A stretch of DNA of 31,532 nucleotides from assembly GCA_018711445.1 (NCBI GenBank), contig DVII01000124.1:1-31532 (forward strand). The letters run 5' to 3'. This document shows positions 1,480 through 14,883 of this stretch, one piece after another. The notes under the pieces are model-generated. The model did not search any database. It saw only the letters and a program-made list of their open reading frames with translations, and was not told where the DNA came from. Source of the stretch: Candidatus Coprovivens excrementavium (lineage in GTDB: Bacteria > Bacillota_I > Bacilli_A > RF39 > UBA660). Positions within the stretch are counted from its first letter, which is position 1. The number at the start of each line of letters is the position of its first letter. A program made the position numbers and the translations under genes.

Positions 1480-2371
1480 ACGTAATATTGCCAATGCTAT
1501 AAAAAGCATATTTCGTAATTTTAGTTTAAGTGCTGCTTCCATTATTTGTACTACAATTACTTTAATAATTGTTGCTCTAGCTATTATTTTCTCAGCTAAT
1601 GTTAATAATTTTACAAGAGATATTGAAAATACTTTAACTATAATAGTTTTTGTTGACAAAACAGCTACTGAAGAAGATATAAGTTCAATAAGAAGTAAAA
1701 TTTTAGAAATTAAAAATGTCAAAAGTGACGAATTAATCTTTAAAGATAAAGAAGAGATTAAAGAAGAAACAATGAAAAACACAGATAAAAGTTCATCATT
1801 GTATTCTATTATGGAAAATTGGACAGAAGAAACAAATCCATTAGAATCAGAATTTATTATATCTGTCAAAAATGTTGAAGACTTAGAAGAAACAGCTACT
1901 ACTTTAGAAAAAATAGAAAAGGTAACAAATGTTAAGTATAGTGAAGATGTTGTTGATAATATGATTCCTCTATTTGACGTTGTTGAAAAAGTAACAATTG
2001 TTATAATTATTGGTTTAATTGTTGTCACTACTTTCTTAATTTGTAACACAATAAAATTAACTATCTTCGCTCGTAAAAATGAAATTGAAATAATGCGTCT
2101 AGTAGGAACAAGCAATTTCACTATTAAATTACCATTTGTAATAGAAGGTCTATTTCTAGGAATGATTGGTTCAATAATTCCTATGTTAGCAACAATATGG
2201 GGATATATATTTGCATTTGATAAATTAGAGGGACATTTATTTACAAATTATATAAGAATGATAACTCCAATACCATTTGTCTTTTATACATCTATTGCTT
2301 TGCTAATTATTGGATCATTAGTTGGTATGTTTGGTAGTTATATAACAGTAAGGAAGTATTTAAAGATATGA
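1457..2371 (+). CDS. ftsX: Cell division permease FtsX
   Basis: Four TM segments with a large extracellular loop; RKNEIEIMRLVGTS and PFVIEG motifs; overlaps ftsE. Confidence 0.9.
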   Translation: MKAIRIFRRNIANAIKSIFRNFSLSAASIICTTITLIIVALAIIFSANVNNFTRDIENTLTIIVFVDKTATEEDISSIRSKILEIKNVKSDELIFKDKEEIKEETMKNTDKSSSLYSIMENWTEETNPLESEFIISVKNVEDLEETATTLEKIEKVTNVKYSEDVVDNMIPLFDVVEKVTIVIIIGLIVVTTFLICNTIKLTIFARKNEIEIMRLVGTSNFTIKLPFVIEGLFLGMIGSIIPMLATIWGYIFAFDKLEGHLFTNYIRMITPIPFVFYTSIALLIIGSLVGMFGSYITVRKYLKI

Positions 2372-3588
2372 TAAAGAAATCAAAAAAAATAATTAATCTG
2401 TTTATAATATTTGCTCTTGTTTTTGTTACAACATGTCCATTCAAAGTCAAAGAAGTCAAAGCGGAAAGATTAATCGATTACAAAAATAAAGTAGCAGAAC
2501 TAGAAAGTCAAAAAGCTGAAGCAGATGCTTTAACAAATGAAGCAAAGCAAAATATTGAAAAAAAATCTCAAGCTATAAAAGATGCCAATAACACAATCAT
2601 TCTAAATGAACAACGTGTTGAAGAAGCCAAACAAAAAGTCGCTGAGAGCCAAGAAGAAATAAAAATAAAACAAGAGGAACTAAAAGATGTTCTAGTTTCT
2701 CTTCAATATTCAGATTTAAATCCTGATGAAATATATACTGATTATATTTTTTCAGCCTCAAGTATTTCTGAAATGATGGAAAGACAAGCGGTAGTTGAAC
2801 AAGTAGTAAACTACACCCAAGAACAACTAAATAGTCTAGATGAATTAATTGAAGACAACGAAAAATTACAAGTTAAACTAGCAAATGATAATGTTACTTT
2901 AAATAATTCAATTACTTCGTATGAAACGCAATTAGAAGAACTTCACGAATATGTTGATAAACAAGCTAGTATAGGCATGGGGTTTGCAGATCAAATTAAA
3001 GCTCAAAAAAATATGATTAAACTATTTGAAGAAGCAGGTTGTAAAGATAATGATGATGTAGAAGTTTGTTACTTCTCTAAAATGGAAGGATCTGGCTCAT
3101 TCTCAAGACCATTAACTAAAGGAAAGGTTACTCAGGCATATAATAAAACACATGCCGGTATTGATTTAGGAGGAAATCCTGAAGGAACACCTGTTTATGC
3201 TCCTGCAAGTGGTACAGTAATTTATGTTGCTCGTAAAACATCTTGTGGCGGAAATATTGTTTATATGCATGCTTTAGTTGATGGAAAAAAATATACTGTT
3301 GAAATGGCACATTTATTAAGTATTAAAGTTTCATCAGGACAAAAAGTTAGCAAAGGACAAATAATTGGAACCGTTGGTGGCTACTCAACGTCACATGCTT
3401 TATCTGGTGGCTATGATTATTGTACTTATGGCGCTCACTTGCACTATGCAATATCATATGGTTATTTCTTCTCAGAAAGTGGTAGAACCCAATGGAATAA
3501 ATTTAAAGCTAATACAGGAGCTACTTCAGTACAATCAATCTCTGGTATTAAGAGTAAAAAAGGTTGGAAGTGGACTACAAGAGGATAA
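2368..3588 (+). CDS. Secreted coiled-coil M23 (LytM) metallopeptidase, likely FtsEX-regulated peptidoglycan hydrolase
   Basis: N-terminal signal peptide, long coiled coil, HAGID (HxxxD) and HLH (HxH) Zn motifs; ATGA overlap with the ftsX stop. Confidence 0.85.
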   Translation: MIKKSKKIINLFIIFALVFVTTCPFKVKEVKAERLIDYKNKVAELESQKAEADALTNEAKQNIEKKSQAIKDANNTIILNEQRVEEAKQKVAESQEEIKIKQEELKDVLVSLQYSDLNPDEIYTDYIFSASSISEMMERQAVVEQVVNYTQEQLNSLDELIEDNEKLQVKLANDNVTLNNSITSYETQLEELHEYVDKQASIGMGFADQIKAQKNMIKLFEEAGCKDNDDVEVCYFSKMEGSGSFSRPLTKGKVTQAYNKTHAGIDLGGNPEGTPVYAPASGTVIYVARKTSCGGNIVYMHALVDGKKYTVEMAHLLSIKVSSGQKVSKGQIIGTVGGYSTSHALSGGYDYCTYGAHLHYAISYGYFFSESGRTQWNKFKANTGATSVQSISGIKSKKGWKWTTRG

Positions 3589-3618
3589 GAAGGATAAAAC
3601 CTTCTTTTTTTTCTTTTT
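3587..3618 (+). terminator. Intrinsic terminator of the ftsEX-M23 operon
   Basis: AAGAAGG-ataaaa-CCTTCTT 7-bp stem followed by a T tract immediately at the stop codon. Confidence 0.75.
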
Positions 3619-3620
3619 AT

Positions 3621-3771
3621 ATAATATCGATTTTTGTCGATTTAAATAAAAAAATGTCGAATTTATTTCTTTTTTATCGTAAATTGTTTAATTTTGTCGA
3701 TTTTTGTCGTCCAGTATCTATTTATAATGTATTTAGTTTTATAAAGTCGAAATATGTCGTATTATGTCAAT
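3621..3771 (+). repeat. 10-bp-phased array of Spo0A-box-like heptamers (unit consensus WWWWTGTCGA)
   Basis: Heptamers start at 3625 TATCGAT, 3635 TGTCGAT, 3655 TGTCGAA, 3675 TATCGTA, 3695 TGTCGAT, 3705 TGTCGTC, 3745 AGTCGAA, 3755 TGTCGTA and 3765 TGTCAAT. Weaker copies are at 3685 and 3715. All are in the same register modulo 10. Confidence 0.9.
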
Positions 3772-3806
3772 AGCTTCTTATCTTCTTTTTATGCAGATAA
3801 TATTTG

Positions 3807-3815
3807 TGGTATCAT
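3807..3815 (+). promoter_or_regulatory. Possible extended -10 promoter for yvcK-whiA
   Basis: TG-G-TATCAT about 24 nt upstream of the ATG; poor -35. Confidence 0.35.
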
Positions 3816-3838
3816 AATATTTAAATGGAGGTTTGCAT

Positions 3839-4786
3839 ATGAAAAAAGTAGTTATTTTTGGTGGCGGAAGTGGAATGTCACAATTATTAAAAGGAATGAT
3901 TCAATTTCCTATGGATATAACAGCTGTTGTTAGTATGTCTGATAATGGAACGAGTACAGGGCGTTTGCGTGAAGAATTTTCTATTCCCGCTGTAGGTGAT
4001 ATAACTAAAGTTTTAATGGCTATGTCTACAGAATCAAAGGGTGTTAAAGACTTATTTAATTATCGTTTCAGCAATGATAGTAGTATTGGTAATCATTCTA
4101 TAAAGAATTTGATAATGACTGCATTATTGGAAATGAAAGGGGATTTTGCTCATTCCTTACCAATATTATGTGATTTACTAGATGTTAAAGGTAAACTTCT
4201 TCCTATTACAGAAGACAATGTTGATTTAATTGGAATTACAAAAGAAGGATACGAAATAATAGGTGAGGCTGAGATAACAGAATCAAAAAGAGAGATAGTT
4301 GATCTTAAATATAGTAAAAAAGTCAAAGTTACTCCTAAAGTTTTAGAAGAAATAAAAAAAGCCGATTTAATAATTTTTAGTTCGGGTTCACTTTTAACTA
4401 GCATTTCACCACATATTATTATTCCTGAAATACAAGAAGCTGTTAGAAATTCCAAAGCACGAAAAATGTATATTTGCAATATGCTTACTCAACCAGGTGA
4501 AACTGACGGCTTCAAAGTAAGTGATCATATAAAATATCTTGAAAAATATCTAGGAACAGGAACAATTAATGCAGTTATTGCCAATAACTCAAAGATTCCA
4601 CAAAATATGGCTCTTCTTGCTAAATCAGAAGGTAAAGATCCTGTTGCTATTGATACAAAAGCGTTACAAAATATGGACATAGAGATTTTAGAAGAAAAAT
4701 TATTCAAAGTTGAAGAAGGATATATTAGACATAATTCTCTAAAAACAGCATACTTAATCTTTTCGTATTTAATTGAGGACGAATAA
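3839..4786 (+). CDS. yvcK: YvcK/GlmR (CofD-related) gluconeogenesis morphogenetic factor
   Basis: GGGSG, SDNGTSTGRLREEF, GDI, NHSIKNL, SGSLLTSI and CNMLTQPGETDG motifs; upstream of whiA. Start set at ATG 3839 behind GGAGG. Confidence 0.9.
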   Translation: MKKVVIFGGGSGMSQLLKGMIQFPMDITAVVSMSDNGTSTGRLREEFSIPAVGDITKVLMAMSTESKGVKDLFNYRFSNDSSIGNHSIKNLIMTALLEMKGDFAHSLPILCDLLDVKGKLLPITEDNVDLIGITKEGYEIIGEAEITESKREIVDLKYSKKVKVTPKVLEEIKKADLIIFSSGSLLTSISPHIIIPEIQEAVRNSKARKMYICNMLTQPGETDGFKVSDHIKYLEKYLGTGTINAVIANNSKIPQNMALLAKSEGKDPVAIDTKALQNMDIEILEEKLFKVEEGYIRHNSLKTAYLIFSYLIEDE

Positions 4787-4787
4787 T

Positions 4788-5720
4788 ATGACATTTACTA
4801 CTAGGTTAAAAGAAGAAATAACTAAAAATGAAATATCTCAATTAGAATCGCTTATTGAATTATCAGCATTTATAAGATTTTCTGCTCATTTAAAAAAAGA
4901 TAAAATTGTTCTAATAATGGAAAATGCTTCAGTTGCTCGAAGAATATACAAAGATATAAAAGCAAATTTTGCTGTTAATATAAAAATAACAATTCGTAAT
5001 CAAAAAAGATTTCGTGTTAAACAAATATACATATTAGAAATAAATGAAAAAGTGGATTTTATTTTAGAATCATTAAGTATCCTAAAAAATAATAAAAAGA
5101 TTCTCCCAGAAGAATATTTTATTAATAGTAAAGAAGAAACAATCGCTTTTTTAAAAGGAGCTTTTCTAGCATCTGGTAGTTTAAATGATCCTAGCAAAGC
5201 TGGATATCATTTTGAACTTACTTCATCAACTAAAAAAGAAGGATTGTTTTTATCTCAATTACTAAAGAAATTTGACTTTTCAGCTAAAGTAATAAAACGT
5301 AATAATCATTACATGACATATATAAAAAGTGCTGAAATGATAAGTGAATTAATTCGTTTATTTGGAGCGACAAATTGTTTCTTTTATTTTGAAGATATAC
5401 GTATTTATCGTGATCATAAAAATATGGTTAATCGTTTAAATAACTGTGAAATTGCTAATCAAGAAAAAATTCTGAAATCAGGAATAAAACAATTAAATGA
5501 TATAGCCTATTTAAAAGAGCATGACCTTATAGGACTACTAGATGAAAATGTCCAAGAAGCTATCAAATATCGTGAAGCATATCCTGAAACCTCTCTTCAA
5601 GAATTAGCTGATATCATTTCAACTGAAACTGGTCGAAAAATAGGTAAATCAGGAATCAATCATTATTTTATTAAAGTAAAAAAATTAATTGAAAAACATA
5701 AAGAAAAAAACGCTAAATAG
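4788..5720 (+). CDS. whiA: DNA-binding protein WhiA
   Basis: MTFTTRLKEE start, FLKGAFLASGSLNDP-GYHFE, NRLNNCEIAN and SLQELAD...GKSGINH HTH region. Start set at ATG 4788 behind GAGGA. Confidence 0.92.
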   Translation: MTFTTRLKEEITKNEISQLESLIELSAFIRFSAHLKKDKIVLIMENASVARRIYKDIKANFAVNIKITIRNQKRFRVKQIYILEINEKVDFILESLSILKNNKKILPEEYFINSKEETIAFLKGAFLASGSLNDPSKAGYHFELTSSTKKEGLFLSQLLKKFDFSAKVIKRNNHYMTYIKSAEMISELIRLFGATNCFFYFEDIRIYRDHKNMVNRLNNCEIANQEKILKSGIKQLNDIAYLKEHDLIGLLDENVQEAIKYREAYPETSLQELADIISTETGRKIGKSGINHYFIKVKKLIEKHKEKNAK

Positions 5721-5732
5721 CGTCTTTTTTTT
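5704..5732. terminator. Probable bidirectional terminator between whiA and the convergent gene
   Basis: A tract - ACGCT-aaat-AGCGT - T tract, between two stop codons 10 bp apart. Confidence 0.6.
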
Positions 5733-7107
5733 ACCACATATTAGAATAGTTACCATCTTCCTTATATACTGAGTCCATTAATATAATATAATCATAAATA
5801 CTATTATTAACTAGTTTGTTCTTTCTAACAACAGTCATCACAACTCCACCGGTTGTATTTAGAGATTCGGCAATATAGTAGTTGGTATCATCCCAGCCCG
5901 CTAAAATAGCCATATGACCGTTTAATCCAATCAAATCACCAGCTTTAACTCTTCCAGAATTCATTAATTCTTCCGTTATTTTTACTTTTTCACCCAAATC
6001 ATCTAAGTCATCATGTTCAGCATTTTCTCCAGCACCAATATCACCTACATCAAATCCACCATTCAATAATGCCCAAGTTACAAATCCAGAACAATCTAAT
6101 CCATTAGGATAATATTTGCCAGTTATATATGGGCCCCAATCAGTATAATTTTGTAAATCGCATCCCCAAATAGCTGGTCCAACAAAACTAGATGTTATAT
6201 CTTTAAATTTACTTTCATTTAAATATAATCCTCGATGATAATAACGTCCTTCACCATCGACATGTTTATAAGGAGCATAATTATTTAAACGTCCATTTTC
6301 ATAGAAGTAGTGAATACGATAAGAGAATTCAAGAGTAATGAAACGAGCAGCTGCAATAACCCCAGCTCTTGTCCCGTATCCAGCTTCATTAATTCTATCA
6401 AATAAGATATTATCTATTAACTTTGCTTCTTCTTCACTAAATTGTTTACAAGATATATAACTTTTTTTAGTATTTACCACCGGTTTAGTAATAAAAGGAC
6501 TAACTATAACTTTAACTTTACTATTTGCTCCATCATCACTTACTAAATTTATATATGCTGTTCCATAATCATTTGCCTTTATAATGCCGTCATCATTAAT
6601 ACTGGCAATTTTTTCATTACTAGAAGTTATTTTTATATTTTCTTCTACATTACCCAACTTAACTAATTCATAAGTTAGTAATTGTTCCATTCCTTTCCAC
6701 ATATAAAAAGTTGTTTTATTAGGTTTTATTTCTAAAATTTTATCAATATTAACTTTTTGTTTATTTGAATCTACAATATTTCCATATGTATCCTTAACAA
6801 AGATGTTGTACTCACCATCTTCTACTGTAAAAGAGCAATATCCGTTACGAGCTTGAACCCAATTATTATCTTTTTTATTTGGGACATCATCACTTTCTGA
6901 TAATAAACACCATGTTGCTTTATTAAACTTTAAGGGATGATTATCAACTTCAATATTAAAAATAACTTGATTATCAAATCTTTTAGATTCGTTTATTTCA
7001 ATATTAGTTACATAAGGAGGCATTTTAAAGTTGATATATCCTAAATATCCAATAATTCCAAGTATGATTATAATTATGACAATTAGTAAGACCTTTTTAT
7101 TCTTCAT
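5731..7107 (-). CDS. Membrane-anchored surface protein with Ig-like domain(s) and C-terminal NlpC/P60-like (papain-fold) cysteine hydrolase domain
   Basis: N-terminal KK plus hydrophobic anchor; Big_2-like ITSSNEKIASINDDGIIKANDYGTAYI; GLDCSGFVTW, GDLI, GHMAI and YIAES give a candidate Cys-His-Glu triad; GGAGG RBS. Confidence 0.75.
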   Translation of the reverse strand: MKNKKVLLIVIIIIILGIIGYLGYINFKMPPYVTNIEINESKRFDNQVIFNIEVDNHPLKFNKATWCLLSESDDVPNKKDNNWVQARNGYCSFTVEDGEYNIFVKDTYGNIVDSNKQKVNIDKILEIKPNKTTFYMWKGMEQLLTYELVKLGNVEENIKITSSNEKIASINDDGIIKANDYGTAYINLVSDDGANSKVKVIVSPFITKPVVNTKKSYISCKQFSEEEAKLIDNILFDRINEAGYGTRAGVIAAARFITLEFSYRIHYFYENGRLNNYAPYKHVDGEGRYYHRGLYLNESKFKDITSSFVGPAIWGCDLQNYTDWGPYITGKYYPNGLDCSGFVTWALLNGGFDVGDIGAGENAEHDDLDDLGEKVKITEELMNSGRVKAGDLIGLNGHMAILAGWDDTNYYIAESLNTTGGVVMTVVRKNKLVNNSIYDYIILMDSVYKEDGNYSNMW

Positions 7108-8928: not shown

Positions 8929-9942
8929 ATGATAAAAGTAGCAATTAATGGATTTGGAAGAATAGGAAGATTAGCTTTCCGTGAAATGATAACAGGAAGC
9001 GATTTTGATATTGTTGCAATCAATGATTTAACAGATGCTGAGACTTTAGCATATTTGCTAAAGTATGATACTAATCATCGTTCATTTCATGAAGATATTA
9101 TCAATTTTGAAGGCGATGAAATTGTCATAAAAGGAACTAAAAGAATTAAAGTGTATAGTGAAAAAGATCCTGTGAATTTACCATGGAATGATTTAGGGAT
9201 AGATGTTGTTTTAGAATGTACAGGACATTTTACAAGTATCGAGGATGCCTCTAAACATATAACTGCTGGTGCTAAAAAAGTTATTATTTCTGCTCCAGGA
9301 AAAGGTGACATGAAGACGATCGTTTACAATGTAAACTCTGATACCTTAGATGGAAGCGAAACAGTAATTTCTGCAGCGTCTTGTACTACAAATTGTCTTG
9401 CTCCAGTATTAAAAGTAATCGAAGATAATATTGGTATCGTAAAAGGTTATATGACAACTGTTCATGCTTATACAAACGATCAAGCAACACTTGATATTCC
9501 TCATAAGAAAGGAATCAAAGCTCGTCGTGGTCGTGCTTGCGCAATGAATATTGTTCCTGCTTCAACTGGTGCAGCTAGTGCTATAGGAAAAGTTATACCT
9601 TCTTTATTAGGTAAAATGGATGGTAATGCATTCCGCGTTCCAGTGCCAGATGGCTCAGTTATTGACGTTACTCTTGAATTAAGTAGAAATACAACGGTTG
9701 AAGAAATAAACACGTTGTTTACTAATAATCAAAACGAAACATTAAAAATTACTATGGATCCTGTTGTATCAAGTGATATTCTAGGTAAGAAAACAGGAGC
9801 ATTAGTTGATGGGTTACTAACTAATGTTTTAGAAAGCGAAGGGCGTCAATTAGTAAAAATTATTGCTTGGTATGATAACGAAATGGGTTATACAGCTCAA
9901 ATGATGCGTACCGCTAAAAAATTAATGAGTTTTAACAAATAA
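8929..9942 (+). CDS. gap: Type I glyceraldehyde-3-phosphate dehydrogenase, NAD-type
   Basis: GFGRIGR, NDL, ASCTTNCLAP (catalytic Cys), VHAYTNDQ and WYDNE motifs all canonical. Confidence 0.97.
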   Translation: MIKVAINGFGRIGRLAFREMITGSDFDIVAINDLTDAETLAYLLKYDTNHRSFHEDIINFEGDEIVIKGTKRIKVYSEKDPVNLPWNDLGIDVVLECTGHFTSIEDASKHITAGAKKVIISAPGKGDMKTIVYNVNSDTLDGSETVISAASCTTNCLAPVLKVIEDNIGIVKGYMTTVHAYTNDQATLDIPHKKGIKARRGRACAMNIVPASTGAASAIGKVIPSLLGKMDGNAFRVPVPDGSVIDVTLELSRNTTVEEINTLFTNNQNETLKITMDPVVSSDILGKKTGALVDGLLTNVLESEGRQLVKIIAWYDNEMGYTAQMMRTAKKLMSFNK

Positions 9943-9943
9943 T

Positions 9944-9968
9944 AAAGTGTCTATAAGGCACTTTTTTT
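9944..9968 (+). terminator. Intrinsic terminator after gap
   Basis: AAAGTGTC-tataa-GGCACTTT stem (one G-U pair) plus T tract. Confidence 0.7.
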
Positions 9969-9991
9969 ATGTAAAGACTTATTTTTAAAAA

Positions 9992-10020
9992 TTGAAGTCC
10001 ATCATTAAGTATTCTATAAT
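9992..10020 (+). promoter_or_regulatory. Sigma-A promoter for pgk-tpiA
   Basis: TTGAAG-17 bp-TATAAT. Confidence 0.6.
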
Positions 10021-10035
10021 TAAAGTGGTGATGAT

Positions 10036-11229
10036 ATGAAAAGAAGAATTCAAGACATGGATGTAAAAAACAAAAGAGTATTACTTAGATGTGACTTTAA
10101 TGTGCCTGTCAAAGATAACGTAATCTTAGATGATAGTAAAATAGTAGCTGCTTTAAACACTATTGAATATTTAATAAAAGAAGGAGCTAAAATTATCATC
10201 TTATCACACTTTGGTAAAGTAAAAACAGAAGAAGATAAAGCTAAAAACTCACTAGCTCCAATTGCTGCTCATCTTCAAAAATTAGTTAATACTAAAGTAA
10301 TTTTCTCAAAACAATCACGTAGTTTATACCTTGAAGCCAAAATCGAAAATATGAATCCAGGAGAGATTATAGTTTTAGAAAATACTCGTTTTGAAGATGT
10401 ACCTAATAAATTAGAAAGTGGAAATGATGTTCAACTTGCGATGTATTGGGCTGGTTTAGCCGATATTTTCTGCTTAGACGCTTTCGGTTCAGCTCATCGA
10501 AAACATGCTTCAACATATGGCGTTGCCAAATACTTGCCAAGTTGTATAGGTTTCTTAGTCCAACATGAAGTTGAAATGCTTGATACCTATATTCTAAGAG
10601 CGTCTCATCCTTTTACGATTGTAATGGGAGGTGCCAAAGTTGAGGATAAAGTTGAATTAATTGAATCACTTCTTCCACGCTGTGATCAATTATTACTAAC
10701 TGGTGGAATAGCAAATTCTTGTTTAGCTATTTTAGGATTTAGTGTAGGTAATTCCTTACGAACAACTGATACTGAAGTAATGAACAAGATAAAAAATATC
10801 TTAATTAAATATAAAGATAAAATCATGCTTCCAGTTGATGCAATAGTTGGTCGCGTTTACGATGAAAAATATGTAGAACATGTTAATATTGATAAAGTAG
10901 CTGAAGATGATATTATCTATGATATAGGAATCAAAACAATTAATAAATATGATGAAATAATTAAACAATCAAAAACAATTTTTGTTAATGGAACTGCTGG
11001 TAAATACGAAGATATTAGATTTGCTACAGGAACTAGAGAACTATTAACTCGCATAACTGACAGCAACGCGATAAAAGTTGTTGGTGGTGGAGATGGTGTA
11101 AGTGCAGTTAAACATTTCAAATTAGAAAATCGATTTAACTTCCTATCTACAGGAGGAGGAGCAACTTTAGAATATATAATTCAAGGTGGATTACCAGCTA
11201 TTGACAATATTCCTGATAGTGTAAAATGA
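10036..11229 (+). CDS. pgk: Phosphoglycerate kinase (divergent)
   Basis: RCDFNVP, ENTRF, DAFGSAHR, GGAKVEDK, GGGD and STGGGATLE motifs; some basic-patch substitutions. Confidence 0.93.
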   Translation: MKRRIQDMDVKNKRVLLRCDFNVPVKDNVILDDSKIVAALNTIEYLIKEGAKIIILSHFGKVKTEEDKAKNSLAPIAAHLQKLVNTKVIFSKQSRSLYLEAKIENMNPGEIIVLENTRFEDVPNKLESGNDVQLAMYWAGLADIFCLDAFGSAHRKHASTYGVAKYLPSCIGFLVQHEVEMLDTYILRASHPFTIVMGGAKVEDKVELIESLLPRCDQLLLTGGIANSCLAILGFSVGNSLRTTDTEVMNKIKNILIKYKDKIMLPVDAIVGRVYDEKYVEHVNIDKVAEDDIIYDIGIKTINKYDEIIKQSKTIFVNGTAGKYEDIRFATGTRELLTRITDSNAIKVVGGGDGVSAVKHFKLENRFNFLSTGGGATLEYIIQGGLPAIDNIPDSVK

Positions 11230-11951
11230 AATATTTAGTATGTAACTTAAAAGCTAACAAGATAAAAGAAGATTTGATTACATATGAAAAAGGAATATCT
11301 ACGATTAAGACAGTTCCTGATATTGAATTAATCATATGTCCCTCAACACCTTTCTTATATCTTTTTCAATCATCTAAATATAGTTTAGGAAGTCAAGATA
11401 TATCTCAATTTAACTTAGGACCATATACTGGAGAAACAACGGCTGAACAATTGCACTCTTTGAATGTCAAGTATTCATTAGTTGGTCATAGTGAAAGAAG
11501 AAATTTATTAAAAGAAGATGAACAAACAATTATAACAAAAATAAAAAAATCATATCATAGTCACATTCAACCTATTTATTTTATAGGTGAAACAGGTGAT
11601 AAAAAAGAAATAATAAATGAAACTTTAAAACAACAAATAATAAATATTATAGACGAAGTACCTGATTACAAGCGCCCTAAAATGATTATTGTTTATGAAC
11701 CAATATGGGCGATTGGAACAGGAATAGTTCCGACGAATAATGATATAGAAATACGTATAAAAAATATAAAAAGAATTATTGAAGAAAATTATAATTTAAA
11801 ACTTCCAGTATTATATGGTGGAAGTGTCAACGAAGATAATATAAATGAGTTAATTAAAATAGATGAATTAGATGGCTTTGTTTTAGGCGAGAGCTCAAAA
11901 GAATATAGCGAAGTAGAATATATTTATCAAAAGATTCAAAAAAATATCTAA
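11226..11951 (+). CDS. tpiA: Triosephosphate isomerase (divergent)
   Basis: NLKAN (catalytic Lys), GHSERR, YEPIWAIGTG and YGGSVN motifs; ATGA overlap with pgk. Confidence 0.92.
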   Translation: MKYLVCNLKANKIKEDLITYEKGISTIKTVPDIELIICPSTPFLYLFQSSKYSLGSQDISQFNLGPYTGETTAEQLHSLNVKYSLVGHSERRNLLKEDEQTIITKIKKSYHSHIQPIYFIGETGDKKEIINETLKQQIINIIDEVPDYKRPKMIIVYEPIWAIGTGIVPTNNDIEIRIKNIKRIIEENYNLKLPVLYGGSVNEDNINELIKIDELDGFVLGESSKEYSEVEYIYQKIQKNI

Positions 11952-11958
11952 GTCGACA
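11952..11958 (-). promoter_or_regulatory. 0A-box-like site upstream of the spo0A-like gene
   Basis: TGTCGAC on the minus strand (6/7 match to TGTCGAA), 57 bp upstream of the ATG. Confidence 0.35.
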
Positions 11959-12015
11959 AAATAATACATAATACCAAGACAGTATACTTTAAACTAAGAA
12001 CATAGAAAGAGAAAA

Positions 12016-12780
12016 ATGAATATGAAAAATAATATGAATACATTGGTAGTATGTAGTAAAGAAGAATCGAACAAACTTAAACAAGAAATAGCAGTTTTAA
12101 CAACTGAAATAACTATTAAATACACAGCGGACAATTACAAAGATGCATTGCAAATCATTAATAATTCTGATGATTTGGATGCAATATTAATTGATGGTAC
12201 AATGCCTGGAGAAAATATTTTGAATTTATTAACAAATTATAAAAATGAAATATTATTATCTAGAACTATCATCATTGATAACATTAAATTAGATTGCTAT
12301 AATTTATCAGCATCTAACTATCAAATATTCAATGTTATTCCTAAAAATTACAAAATAAATGAATTGATTATCTCTTTAAAAGAAATAAAGAATAAACAAG
12401 AAAAATATAATTTCCACAAGATATCAATCTATGATAAAGTAGCTGAGATATTAAAAAAATTAGGTATTGCTCCTGATAAAAATGGATTTCATTATTTAAG
12501 AAAAGCAATTTATGAATGTTACTTGGAGCCTTCATTATTAACTTCTATTACTAAAGAAATATATCCTATGTTAGCTGCATCTTTTTCTAAAAAAGAAAGT
12601 TGTATCGAGAGGTCAATTAGAAGTGCAATTGAAACAGGTTGGGATCGTGGAAATTACGAATATTCTAATGAATTATTTTCCAATTGTGTAGATTACTATA
12701 AAACAAAGCCAACTAATGGAGAATTTATAGCTATTATAGTTGACAAAATAATGATGGAAGAAGGAAGAACAATTTATTAA
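12016..12780 (+). CDS. spo0A: Spo0A-family transcription factor with an atypical receiver domain
   Basis: C-terminal LGI-PDKNGFHYLRKAI...ITKEIYP...ERSIRSAIE..W.RGN...KPTNGEFIA matches the Spo0A effector domain; N-terminus has LIDGTMP at the receiver beta3 position. Confidence 0.85.
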   Translation: MNMKNNMNTLVVCSKEESNKLKQEIAVLTTEITIKYTADNYKDALQIINNSDDLDAILIDGTMPGENILNLLTNYKNEILLSRTIIIDNIKLDCYNLSASNYQIFNVIPKNYKINELIISLKEIKNKQEKYNFHKISIYDKVAEILKKLGIAPDKNGFHYLRKAIYECYLEPSLLTSITKEIYPMLAASFSKKESCIERSIRSAIETGWDRGNYEYSNELFSNCVDYYKTKPTNGEFIAIIVDKIMMEEGRTIY

Positions 12781-12818
12781 AAAAGAAATTACTTGCCTAC
12801 CTTGTAATTTCTTTTTTT
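12779..12818 (+). terminator. Intrinsic terminator after spo0A
   Basis: AAAAAAGAAATTAC / GTAATTTCTTTTTT 14-bp inverted repeat with an 11-nt loop. Confidence 0.75.
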
Positions 12819-12831
12819 GTTGTGCTATTAT
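12802..12831 (+). promoter_or_regulatory. Possible promoter for the gpmI-like gene overlapping the terminator
   Basis: TTGTAA-18 bp-TATTAT with TG extension. Confidence 0.35.
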
Positions 12832-12850
12832 GTTAATAGGAGAAATGCTT

Positions 12851-14365
12851 ATGAAGAAGATTTTAACAATTATATTGGATGGCTTTGGAATGCGTGAAGA
12901 TATTTATGGTAACGCTGTGAAAAATGCCGGAATGAACAATTTCATCGATATTTGGAATAACTACCCGCACTGTTTGTTAAAAGCTAGCGGTTCTTCAGTT
13001 GGCCTACCTGATAAACAATGTAGTAGCAGCGAATTAGGTCATGAAATAATAGGAACAGGTCGTTTAATTGAAAATGCTCTTGATGAAATAAATGAAGTTT
13101 TTAAAAGGGAACGCCTAAAATATAATCCTAAATATAATGAAATGATTAATTATTTATCTAATAACCCAACCAGAAGTCTTCATATATTTCATTTATTATC
13201 TGATGGTGGCGTTTCTTCACATATAAATCATCTAAAATGTTTTTTAAATACCCTTAGTCACGATAAAGTAGAAAATAAAATCTATCTTCATTTAGCTGCT
13301 GACGGCCGTGATTCAGATAAACATAAAATATATACATATCTTAAAGAAATTGAAAATAATATTTCTAATAATGTTAAGTTAGCTTCAATTTGTGGTCGTT
13401 ATTATGCTTTAGATGATACAAAAGATTATAAGAGAACAAAAATGTTTTATGACTTGTTATTTGATGGACGAGGTATAGATGCTAAAAATTTACCGCGTTT
13501 TATTGAAAAATGCTATGAAAAGAAACTCTCAGATGAATACTTACCGCCATTAAAAACAAATGACTTTCAAACTCTAGATAATAATGATGTTTTAATCTTT
13601 TTAAATTTTAGTAAAGAAAATCAACTTCAATTATTAGATGCGATATGTAATAAAGACTTTATTGAATTTAATAATTATTCTTTAAATATAAAAGTTTATA
13701 GTTTATTTGAAATAGATAAACATATTAATACCAATTATTTCTTTGAAATGCCAAAAAACAAACATACCCTAACTGAATATTTAGCCGGCCTTGGTTTAAC
13801 TCAAGCTCATATATATGAAAGTATAAAAAATAGTTCTATGAGTTATTACCTAAATGGCAAAAGATATTTAAAGTTAGAAAATTGTGATATCTATAGCATT
13901 GATTCGCCAGTGGTTGATAGCTTTGATTTAAAACCTGAAATGAACGCTTTATCTGTTGCTAAAACAATTATTAAATGCATGGAAAAAGATTATGACTTTA
14001 TATTAGCTAATTTCGCCAATCCTGATGAAGTAGGACATACAGGCAATTATCAAGCAACAATAAATGGCTTACAAGCTGTTGATGTATGTTTAGGCAAAAT
14101 ATTAGAAGTTGCCGAAGAAAATTTTTATAAAGTAATTATAACTTCAAGTCACGCTAATGCTGATACGATTATCGATCGCAATAATAATATAATAACCAAA
14201 AACACATTAAGTCCTGTGCCTTTTATAATAATGGACAAAAAATACAAGTTGAAAAATGGAACGTTAACAAGTTTTGCTCCGACACTTTTAAAGTACATGG
14301 ATATTGCTATCCCTAAAGAGATGAAGGATGCAGAAATTTTAATCGAAAAAAATAAAATATCATGA
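12851..14365 (+). CDS. gpmI: 2,3-bisphosphoglycerate-independent phosphoglycerate mutase homolog with a degenerate active site
   Basis: ILDGFG, SELGH, LSDGGV, DGRD, GRYY, DLKPEM and NFANPDEVGHTG motifs give the family; several catalytic residues are substituted. Start set at ATG 12851 behind AGGAGA. Confidence 0.88.
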   Translation: MKKILTIILDGFGMREDIYGNAVKNAGMNNFIDIWNNYPHCLLKASGSSVGLPDKQCSSSELGHEIIGTGRLIENALDEINEVFKRERLKYNPKYNEMINYLSNNPTRSLHIFHLLSDGGVSSHINHLKCFLNTLSHDKVENKIYLHLAADGRDSDKHKIYTYLKEIENNISNNVKLASICGRYYALDDTKDYKRTKMFYDLLFDGRGIDAKNLPRFIEKCYEKKLSDEYLPPLKTNDFQTLDNNDVLIFLNFSKENQLQLLDAICNKDFIEFNNYSLNIKVYSLFEIDKHINTNYFFEMPKNKHTLTEYLAGLGLTQAHIYESIKNSSMSYYLNGKRYLKLENCDIYSIDSPVVDSFDLKPEMNALSVAKTIIKCMEKDYDFILANFANPDEVGHTGNYQATINGLQAVDVCLGKILEVAEENFYKVIITSSHANADTIIDRNNNIITKNTLSPVPFIIMDKKYKLKNGTLTSFAPTLLKYMDIAIPKEMKDAEILIEKNKIS

Positions 14366-14387
14366 GTAATTTTCGTGATATTTTTTT
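14354..14387 (+). terminator. Intrinsic terminator after gpmI
   Basis: AAAATATCATGA / TCGTGATATTTT stem (one G-U pair) plus T tract. Confidence 0.7.
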
Positions 14388-14413
14388 AAATATTGAAAAA
14401 TTTAACTTTTTTC

Positions 14414-14442
14414 TTGCATTTATCGAGCTTTATTGCTATAAT
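14414..14442 (+). promoter_or_regulatory. Strong sigma-A promoter of the S10 superoperon
   Basis: TTGCAT-17 bp-TATAAT with TG extension. Confidence 0.8.
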
Positions 14443-14448
14443 TAAAAA

Positions 14449-14577
14449 CGTATGACTGCTTAGATGTGTGAGGTTGCCGATACACTAGGATGAGTTGTTT
14501 ATATTTTATCTTAAATTTATCGGGGAATTCATTACGGAGCAAGTCTATACTAGATATAGACGAAGGGAGGACATAAA
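14449..14577 (+). ncRNA. Structured 5' leader of rpsJ (candidate r-protein leader)
   Basis: About 130-nt leader, more GC-rich than its flanks. Contains GAGGTTGCCGATACAC, ACGGAG and a GTCTATA-ctaga-TATAGAC hairpin abutting the SD; resembles Bacilli rpsJ leaders as recalled. Confidence 0.55.
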
Positions 14578-14883
14578 ATGTCAAGTAACAAAGTTCGCAT
14601 CACTCTAAAAGCTTATGATCATAGATTATTAGATTTAGCTTGCGGAAAAATTGTTGAAACTGTTAAAAGAACTGGGGGAGAAGTTGTTGGTCCAGTGCCA
14701 CTTCCAACTGAAGTTGAAAAAATCACTGTACTAAGAGCTGTACATAAATATAAGGACTCTAGAGAACAATTTGAAAGCCGTACTCATAAGAGACTTATTG
14801 ATATTAAAAACCCAACAAAAGAAACTGTTGAAGCACTTGCTCACTTAGATATTCCAAGTGGTGTTGCTATTAACATAAAATAA
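14578..14883 (+). CDS. rpsJ: 30S ribosomal protein S10
   Basis: [31 protein letters not shown]. Confidence 0.98.

Follow-up and report, generated by a model that had tools for sequence, protein, structure and literature searches.

A spo0A orthologue with a degenerate receiver domain in the uncultured gut genus Candidatus Coprovivens

The spo0A locus and the DNA-binding half of its product

The subject of this work is spo0A of Candidatus Coprovivens excrementavium, an uncultured gut bacterium with a small genome. The gene lies on contig DVII01000124.1 of GenBank assembly GCA_018711445.1; positions 1 to 31,532 of this contig are the window analysed here. Candidatus Coprovivens is GTDB UBA11963, of the order RF39 (PMC8035907). 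The source is a metagenome-assembled genome (MAG) of 2.22 Mb with 28% G+C, in 345 contigs and 82% complete. An earlier reading of the window, referred to below as the original prediction, was made from its letters and open reading frames (ORFs). It proposed that the gene encodes a Spo0A homologue with an intact DNA-reading helix and an atypical receiver, uncoupled from the phosphorelay. We find that the DNA-binding half is that of a conventional Spo0A. The receiver half has exchanged most of its catalytic residues. The coordinates of all features are listed in Table 1.

The gene is intact and encodes 254 amino acids (aa) in the ORF list of the window. Its orthologues begin with MKNN, and the ribosome-binding site GAAAGAGA, which is conserved among them, is better spaced for the second ATG, at 12022. 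Hence, the sequence suggests that translation starts at 12022 and yields a protein of 252 aa; the first ATG, at 12016, is probably not the start.

The spo0A gene sits between tpiA and gpmI, downstream of gap and pgk and upstream of the S10 ribosomal operon. The order pgk-tpiA-spo0A-gpmI recurs at every Coprovivens locus and in many of the 30 other RF39 genera sampled. This shared order therefore identifies the gene as a vertically inherited orthologue and not as a paralogue. In a profile scan of the genome PF08769 (Spo0A_C) matched once only, and a second, canonical spo0A elsewhere in the genome is ruled out. The gene is thus the single, vertically inherited and true spo0A orthologue. A Spo0A_C gene is present in 147 of the 151 RF39 genomes sampled.

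The C-terminal half of the protein was matched by Spo0A_C over the whole 104-position profile (111 bits, E 3e-32, Pfam cut-off 25). In the genome scan the score was 113 bits. This half is 40-42% identical to the Spo0A structures 1LQ1 (Bacillus subtilis) and 1FC3 (Geobacillus stearothermophilus), with a TM-score of 0.9. TIGR02875, the NCBIfam equivalog model for Spo0A, gave 122.1 bits and so fell below its cut-off of 200 bits; the shortfall is due to the receiver half. The recognition helix, SCIERSIRS, aligned with SRVERAIRH of 1LQ1. In an alignment of 92 Spo0A homologues, E198 and R202 never vary, and R199 is found in at least 90% of the sequences. A base-contacting role of the helix E, R and R is taken from the literature on 1LQ1, as cited, without residue numbers, in PMC3485338. 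On profile, alignment and structural comparison, the C-terminal domain is the conserved DNA-binding and activation domain of Spo0A.

Upstream of spo0A lies a 0A-type box, TGTCGAC, about 68 nucleotides (nt) before the start. The 2.2-Mb genome has just 25 copies of TGTCGAC. A TGTCGNN box is found at −68 to −70 in 14 of 16 Coprovivens species, despite saturated synonymous divergence (dS), and a TTCGACAAA box precedes spo0A in 30 of 30 other RF39 genera. The window also contains an array of such boxes, which includes TGTCGAT (twice), TGTCGAA, TGTCGTC, AGTCGAA and TGTCGTA, among others. Its TGTCGWW cluster, at 3635-3755, is the stronger of only two clusters genome-wide with at least three boxes per 160 bp. 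Together, the 0A-type boxes support the view that a TGTCGAA-type specificity, and autoregulation, have been retained.

Promoter and terminator scans of positions 9800-14700 gave no excess over shuffled controls, and no terminator was predicted in that region between tpiA and spo0A or after spo0A. The neighbouring tpiA gene (11226-11951 in the window; loci L003-L028 and L068-L071) evolves much faster within the genus than the genes around it, with 42-77% identity compared to 71-93% for pgk. In several species (L008, L012, L025-L027 and L068-L071) there is no tpiA between pgk and spo0A.

Table 1. Positions of spo0A, the domains and key residues of its product, and 0A-type boxes in the window.
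Feature	Coordinates	Strand	Basis
spo0A orthologue	12016..12780	+	ORF; Spo0A_C match; lone PF08769 match of the genome
Pseudo-receiver domain, residues ~7-126	12034..12393	+	PF00072 match below cut-off; AlphaFold 2 model
C13-S14, at the positions of the Mg-binding acidic pair (DD)	12052..12057	+	MAFFT, hhalign, secondary structure of the model
D60, phospho-acceptor position, kept	12193..12195	+	aligned with the canonical Asp
D88-N89, at the switch Thr/Ser and T+1 positions	12277..12282	+	MAFFT alignment
K110-N111, conserved Lys kept and K+1 cis-Pro lost	12343..12348	+	MAFFT, hhalign
Spo0A_C DNA-binding and transcription-activation domain, residues 142-245	12439..12750	+	Pfam, PDB comparison
Recognition helix SCIERSIRS, residues 195-203	12598..12624	+	phmmer alignment to SRVERAIRH of 1LQ1
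0A-type box TGTCGAC, candidate autoregulatory site	11952..11958	-	sequence, conservation
0A-type box array, candidate Spo0A target	3621..3771	+	upstream of the ORF starting at 3833

Residues, fold and conservation of the receiver half

The PF00072 receiver profile matches residues 32-119 only, with 19.5 bits against a Pfam cut-off of 30.2 (21.1 bits in the genome scan). We mapped the five catalytic positions in three ways: with the 92-sequence MAFFT alignment, with global hhalign and from the secondary structure of an AlphaFold 2 (AF2) model. The reference in the MAFFT alignment was a canonical member that reads ADDNE, LLDIIMP, ILTA and LLKPY. The hhalign comparison was of profile against profile, the Coprovivens sequences being set against 30 canonical RF39 Spo0A proteins.

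MAFFT placed C13 and S14 at the acidic pair, D60 at the acceptor position and D88-N89 at the positions of the switch Thr and its neighbour (T and T+1). It placed V107 at the switch aromatic (K-3), K110 at the conserved Lys (K) and N111 at K+1. With a gap-free N terminus, hhalign matched C13 and S14 with DD, D60 with the acceptor Asp and K110-N111-Y112 with K-P-F. The K-3 aromatic is replaced by Val or Ile. In a second hhalign register LDCYN falls on canonical LTSYN, which puts D93 at the Thr position; MAFFT and the model give D88. In both registers the Thr position is occupied by Asp, and never by Ser or Thr. D88-N89 is invariant even among the deep members of the clade. Across 113 cluster representatives C13 is at least 98% conserved, and S14 is replaced by Cys in 7 of 38 sequences.

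In the AF2 model strand 1 spans residues 7-12 and helix 1 spans residues 15-28. C13 and S14 therefore lie in the loop between strand 1 and helix 1, the DD site, and E16 and E17 lie in the first turn of helix 1. We considered E16 and E17 as Mg ligands and rejected them on the MAFFT alignment, the hhalign comparison and the modelled secondary structure. Acidic residues at DD+2 and DD+3 are frequent in the MAFFT alignment also among Spo0A proteins that bear the DD pair. One alignment only, a pairwise phmmer alignment to 3b2n, sets EE16-17 on ED, by way of a 2-residue gap.

Three of the five members of the receiver quintet (DD/D/T/K) are thus missing, and D60 and K110 are kept. The original prediction had described this pattern. 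Its retained Asp and Lys are found at the canonical positions, its lost acidic pair and lost switch Thr and cis-Pro are occupied by C13/S14, D88 (or D93) and N111, and the DNA-reading helix is conserved as it had stated. It had also named what would speak against it, namely EE16-17 in the Mg pocket; three analyses place these residues on helix 1. By its residues, the domain falls under the definition of a pseudo-receiver, or atypical response regulator, given in PMC12632262. It is not an aspartate-less receiver (ALR), because D60 is present and is invariant in the main clade.

The AF2 model was built on the 92 homologues and has a mean predicted local distance difference test score (pLDDT) of 86. 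In the receiver domain the pLDDT is mostly 87-97, and is lowest (69-72) in blocks 1-10 and 91-100. Strands 1-5 are kept, helix 3 is split and helix 4 is reduced to 3 residues. The modelled N domain matches the Spo0A receiver 5wq0 with a TM-score of 0.76. As modelled, the N-terminal domain appears to keep a receiver-like fold, with its helices 3 and 4 altered. A homodimer prediction for residues 1-132, run without controls, scored 0.00 and is evidence neither way.

Across 16 species the ratio of non-synonymous to synonymous divergence (dN/dS) was ~0.15 for residues 8-126 and ~0.03 for the C-domain, both rough values because dS is saturated (median ~1.5). Among the 113 cluster representatives, which share 66-100% identity, conservation reaches at least 98% at 34 receiver positions. 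Among these positions are V11-V12-C13, D55-A56-I57, D60, T84, D88-N89-I90, L92-D93-C94-Y95-N96, Y102-Q103 and N106, which together make up the old active-site face. By these measures, purifying selection still acts on the degenerate receiver, so that the window protein is probably not simply constitutive. No other part of the domain is as well conserved as the old pocket. Hence, it looks rebuilt and constrained, rather than decayed or abandoned, and input via the pocket, or an unusual phosphorylation of D60, may still take place.

Origin of the degenerate receiver, sporulation genes and candidate phosphorelay parts

In the other RF39 genera sampled, 30 of 30 loci (L038-L067) encode canonical receivers with the motifs hhhhDD, DLxMP, LTS and KPF. 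Receivers of the sister genera score 81-88 bits on PF00072, compared to 19.5 for the window protein. A maximum-likelihood tree groups the Coprovivens proteins in a single clade (Shimodaira-Hasegawa-like approximate likelihood ratio test, SH-aLRT, 99), whose stem measures 3.04 substitutions per site. The internal branches of the canonical RF39 proteins measure 0.1-0.3. As reconstructed from these sequences, the receiver changed a single time, on a stem branch of great length, and the change is specific to one genus-level clade.

Within the GTDB genus the receivers form a graded series. The main clade, which includes the window protein, reads C/S-D-D-K. In genome G007 the Lys is replaced by His, in G017 and G021 it is lost, and in G020 the acceptor position carries Glu. 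Genome G024 encodes a receiver-less Spo0A_C protein of 121 aa. This gene has its own ribosome-binding site and lies 60 nt after tpiA, ahead of gpmI. G024 keeps a full-length SpoIVA (618 bits) and a SigG-like sigma factor.

Elsewhere in RF39, genomes G052, G107, G064, G169, G145, G058, G043 and G046 (loci L076-L083) have receivers that were independently deleted, internally truncated or degenerate. These losses sit at the same tpiA-spo0A locus, and SpoIVA was not found in those genomes. A further arrangement, of 3-4 tandem Spo0A_C domains with no receiver, was seen in the metagenomic proteins P0121, P0123, P0124 and P0129 and in G187 (contig C6, 51296-52375); these proteins have 350-540 aa.

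The window's own genome (G000) encodes SpoIVA (621 bits) and SpoIID (286 bits), both scoring over their cut-offs. A SigG-like gene (316 bits on PRK08215) is followed by YlmC/YmxH. There are two SigF-like genes, each followed by SpoVAC-SpoVAD(-SpoVAEB), in paralogous clusters on contigs C195 (L034) and C130 (L035). One of the two is preceded by a SpoIIAA-like gene, without SpoIIAB between. Relatives also carry a SigE-like gene adjoining a SpoIIGA-like gene, and a SigK-like gene. The ORFs that precede the sigF-like genes (546 and 464 aa) were considered as SpoIIE-like and rejected; the former has no Pfam match and the latter only a sub-threshold match to DUF6273.

Full-length SpoIVA scores over the cut-off in 18 of 27 genus genomes, including those of the window, G024 and G007. 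Genomes G017, G020 and G021, which have the most degenerate receivers of the genus, lack both SpoIVA and the SigG-like sigma. Across RF39, 21 of 151 genomes lack SpoIVA, and these include all the inspected genomes in which Spo0A is truncated, degenerate or absent. From gene content, receiver erosion would thus usually accompany loss of sporulation, with the main Coprovivens clade and G024 as the exception.

The spoIVA gene of at least 10 other RF39 genomes is in two pieces, divided at residue ~121-124, which lie 2.6-10 kb apart or at contig ends. Examples are G079 (contig C2, 72632-73003 and 75618-76745) and G191 (contig C12, 3849-4217 and 14410-15525). The split looks like the insertion of an intervening, skin-like element.

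Parts of a phosphorelay were also sought. All PF00072 matches in five genus genomes lie in open frames of at least 200 aa, and therefore no stand-alone Spo0F-like receiver is present among them. Spo0B was not found; the sole SPOB_a match falls within a 444-aa ORF, which carries a HATPase_c match as well and adjoins a receiver-bearing ORF on the same contig. The original prediction had suggested a look for a canonical paralogue, Spo0F and Spo0B, and none of the three turned up.

In G023, which is assembled in 7 contigs, each non-hybrid kinase adjoins its own regulator. Kinases without a neighbouring regulator number three in the canonical genome G047 and none in G023, a sample too small to use. 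The kinase census does not discriminate, because canonical RF39 genera carry hybrid kinases too. A conserved cluster encodes a hybrid kinase of 771-791 aa with two receivers, a response regulator of 267-275 aa and a hybrid kinase of 633-647 aa. It lies on contig C147 of the window's genome (~1700-6800) and is syntenic in G001, G009, G018 and G023. This cluster is the only candidate for an unusual relay.

A proposed phosphorylation-independent Spo0A and known systems

In receiver chemistry, the acidic pair serves the metal, and T and K serve the phosphoryl oxygens (PMC12632262). Canonical phosphotransfer with an allosteric read-out is very unlikely for the window protein, because Cys and Ser stand at DD, Asp stands at T, and the Thr/aromatic switch is gone. 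The explanation that we judge rather probable is a Spo0A that works independently of phosphorylation and is set by its own autoregulated level, by input at the rebuilt pocket, or by both. Canonical Mg-dependent phosphotransfer to D60 would no longer operate. The protein would bind TGTCGAA-type boxes and switch on the reduced set of sporulation genes with no phosphorelay involved. How active it is would depend on its concentration, governed by an autoregulated promoter within the glycolytic genes, and perhaps also on an input acting on the conserved pocket (C13, D60, D88-N89 and LDCYN). The pseudo-receiver probably still gates the DNA-binding domain, or helps it to dimerise. More speculatively, D88 might supply a built-in negative charge at the phosphoryl position. 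We favour this explanation also because the isolated Spo0A DNA-binding domain binds its targets without phosphorylation, in work cited in PMC3485338, and G024 is a natural version of that construct.

The original prediction of an uncoupled master regulator stands in part. The loss of the pocket residues and the failure to find Spo0B or Spo0F agree with uncoupling; the protein is not, however, a side-lined homologue but the true orthologue of a lineage with a reduced sporulation set. Its phosphorylation independence is made plausible by the altered pocket, and by receiver-less G024 keeping SpoIVA, but the rebuilt and conserved pocket may leave a route through D60. Control by level, which it had offered among other inputs, fits the conserved 0A box upstream of the gene.

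Several observations weigh against our explanation. Within the main clade D60 never varies and K110 hardly does, which would be needless if the site were irrelevant. The genus also conserves two receiver-bearing hybrid kinases that might supply an unusual relay. SpoIIE was not found in 27 of 27 genus genomes, nor SpoIIID and SpoIIIAA in 5 of 5. Our view of the pocket geometry, including how far E16 might reach, comes from alignment and secondary structure only, and the dN/dS values are rough. The organism is uncultured, and its sporulation, like the DNA binding and expression of its Spo0A, is a prediction.

The first two of these points belong to an alternative in which D60 is still phosphorylated by non-canonical chemistry, either with a metal held by other carboxylates (E16/E17 or D88) or by phosphotransfer from a hybrid kinase. 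Conservation of the pocket face, as the best-conserved part of the domain, and of E or D at positions 16-17 would also fit, as would the 267-275-aa regulator encoded with the hybrid kinases. However, three alignments and the fold model all give non-acidic residues at the two DD positions. Acids at DD+2 and DD+3 are common where DD is present, and hence are no substitutes for it. An Asp at the Thr position would repel the phosphoryl group, given the chemistry set out in PMC12632262, and the Thr/aromatic switch pair is gone. Moreover, deeper members of the clade lack K, or have His there, or carry Glu at D, and G024 lacks the whole domain yet has SpoIVA. We therefore regard phosphorylation of D60 as unlikely. 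A different use of the same residues is as a new sensor site. Here, an invariant cluster of thiol and carboxylate groups, formed by C13 (with Cys14 in some species), D60, D88-N89 and LDCYN, would read redox state, a metal or a metabolite and release the DNA-binding domain directly. A redox cue, such as exposure to oxygen on leaving the gut, might then start sporulation in one component, with no phosphorelay. This proposal, which draws on the conservation of the pocket, is the most doubtful of those that we take seriously.

It is also quite unlikely, if slightly less so than the sensor site, that the lineage no longer sporulates, or is losing the ability, with Spo0A repurposed as a general regulator and its receiver eroding once the phosphorelay had gone. 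The missing SpoIIE, SpoIIID and SpoIIIAA point this way. Eroded, truncated or missing receivers coincide with a lack of SpoIVA elsewhere in RF39 (G043, G046, G052, G058, G064, G107, G145, G169 and G081/G123/G151), as do the most degenerate receivers of the genus, in G017, G020 and G021, which lack the SigG-like sigma too. Spo0A also occurs in many bacteria that do not form spores (bioRxiv 10.1101/2022.02.25.481979). Against this, full-length SpoIVA is kept in two thirds of the genus genomes, the window's included, and SpoIID, four sporulation-type sigmas and SpoVA persist across species in which dS is saturated. The receiver remains under purifying selection with an invariant pocket. The reduced gene set itself has parallels. 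RF39 as a whole lacks spoIIE and spoIIAB and is yet predicted to sporulate, with different regulation (PMC10868615). Known spore-forming Erysipelotrichaceae have a streamlined machinery in which most SpoIIIA genes are absent (bioRxiv 10.1101/2022.02.25.481979). The Coprovivens set fits both the prediction and this streamlining. Finally, the degeneracy might be an artefact of alignment or assembly, the receiver being canonical in reality. The 3b2n alignment, and a fragmented and incomplete MAG, could be cited for this. The same residues recur, however, in over 100 independent cluster representatives drawn from many metagenomes, the results of MAFFT, hhalign and AF2 are consistent, and the PF00072 score is far from the 81-88 bits of the sister genera. 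We consider this possibility effectively refuted.

That RF39 carries spo0A and is predicted to sporulate has already been published (PMC10868615). Our literature searches found no account of a Spo0A orthologue with a degenerate or deleted receiver, although the existence of one elsewhere is not excluded. The pseudo-receiver review PMC12632262 mentions Spo0A 0 times.

To our knowledge, endospore formation is regarded as universally triggered by Spo0A phosphorylation. In the present case, an entire genus of uncultured, widespread bacteria of animal and human guts appears to have kept a sporulation set together with a Spo0A unfit for the canonical chemistry. If our explanation is right, the decision to sporulate can be rewired to an input free of the phosphorelay, whether the level of Spo0A itself or a new sensor pocket. 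The protein would then offer a compact natural system for studying roles of the Spo0A receiver beyond phosphate acceptance. One conserved locus provides a natural series, from the canonical sister genera through the rebuilt receiver to the receiver-less form. For sporulation predictions from MAGs, the presence of Spo0A, or a TIGR02875 score, is no evidence of the standard initiation pathway.

Like the canonical Spo0A proteins of B. subtilis, G. stearothermophilus and Clostridioides difficile, the window protein combines a receiver-like N domain with Spo0A_C and has the E, R and R of the recognition helix. A 0A-type box likewise lies upstream of its own gene, and sporulation sigmas and SpoIVA co-occur with it. 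Unlike them, its receiver is without DD, Thr, the aromatic switch and cis-Pro, and carries Asp at the Thr position; in the model little is left of helix 4, and the linker is short. Searches for a Spo0F, a Spo0B or an orphan kinase to go with it found none. The canonical gene is next to spoIVB, whereas the window gene lies between tpiA and gpmI. The Spo0A proteins of the sister RF39 genera are its orthologues, of ~250-265 aa, with the same pgk-tpiA-spo0A-gpmI place and the TTCGACAAA box; they differ in keeping the DD/D/T/K quintet, and overall identity is only ~30%.

Atypical response regulators are known from ChxR (PMC3960148), HP1043 (PMC5253667) and BldM and WhiI of Streptomyces development (PMC4125116). 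As far as these sources describe them, WhiI and BldM resemble the window protein in being developmental regulators. The window protein differs from the pseudo-receiver regulators in that its output domain is Spo0A_C, its acceptor Asp is kept, and Cys/Ser and Asp occupy the DD and T positions. A last comparison is with the isolated C-domain of Spo0A, which was active without phosphorylation in experiments in B. subtilis and C. difficile; its binding to real targets in the laboratory is cited in PMC3485338. The natural counterpart of that construct in this genus is the receiver-less protein of G024; the window protein, unlike it, keeps an N domain that is under purifying selection.

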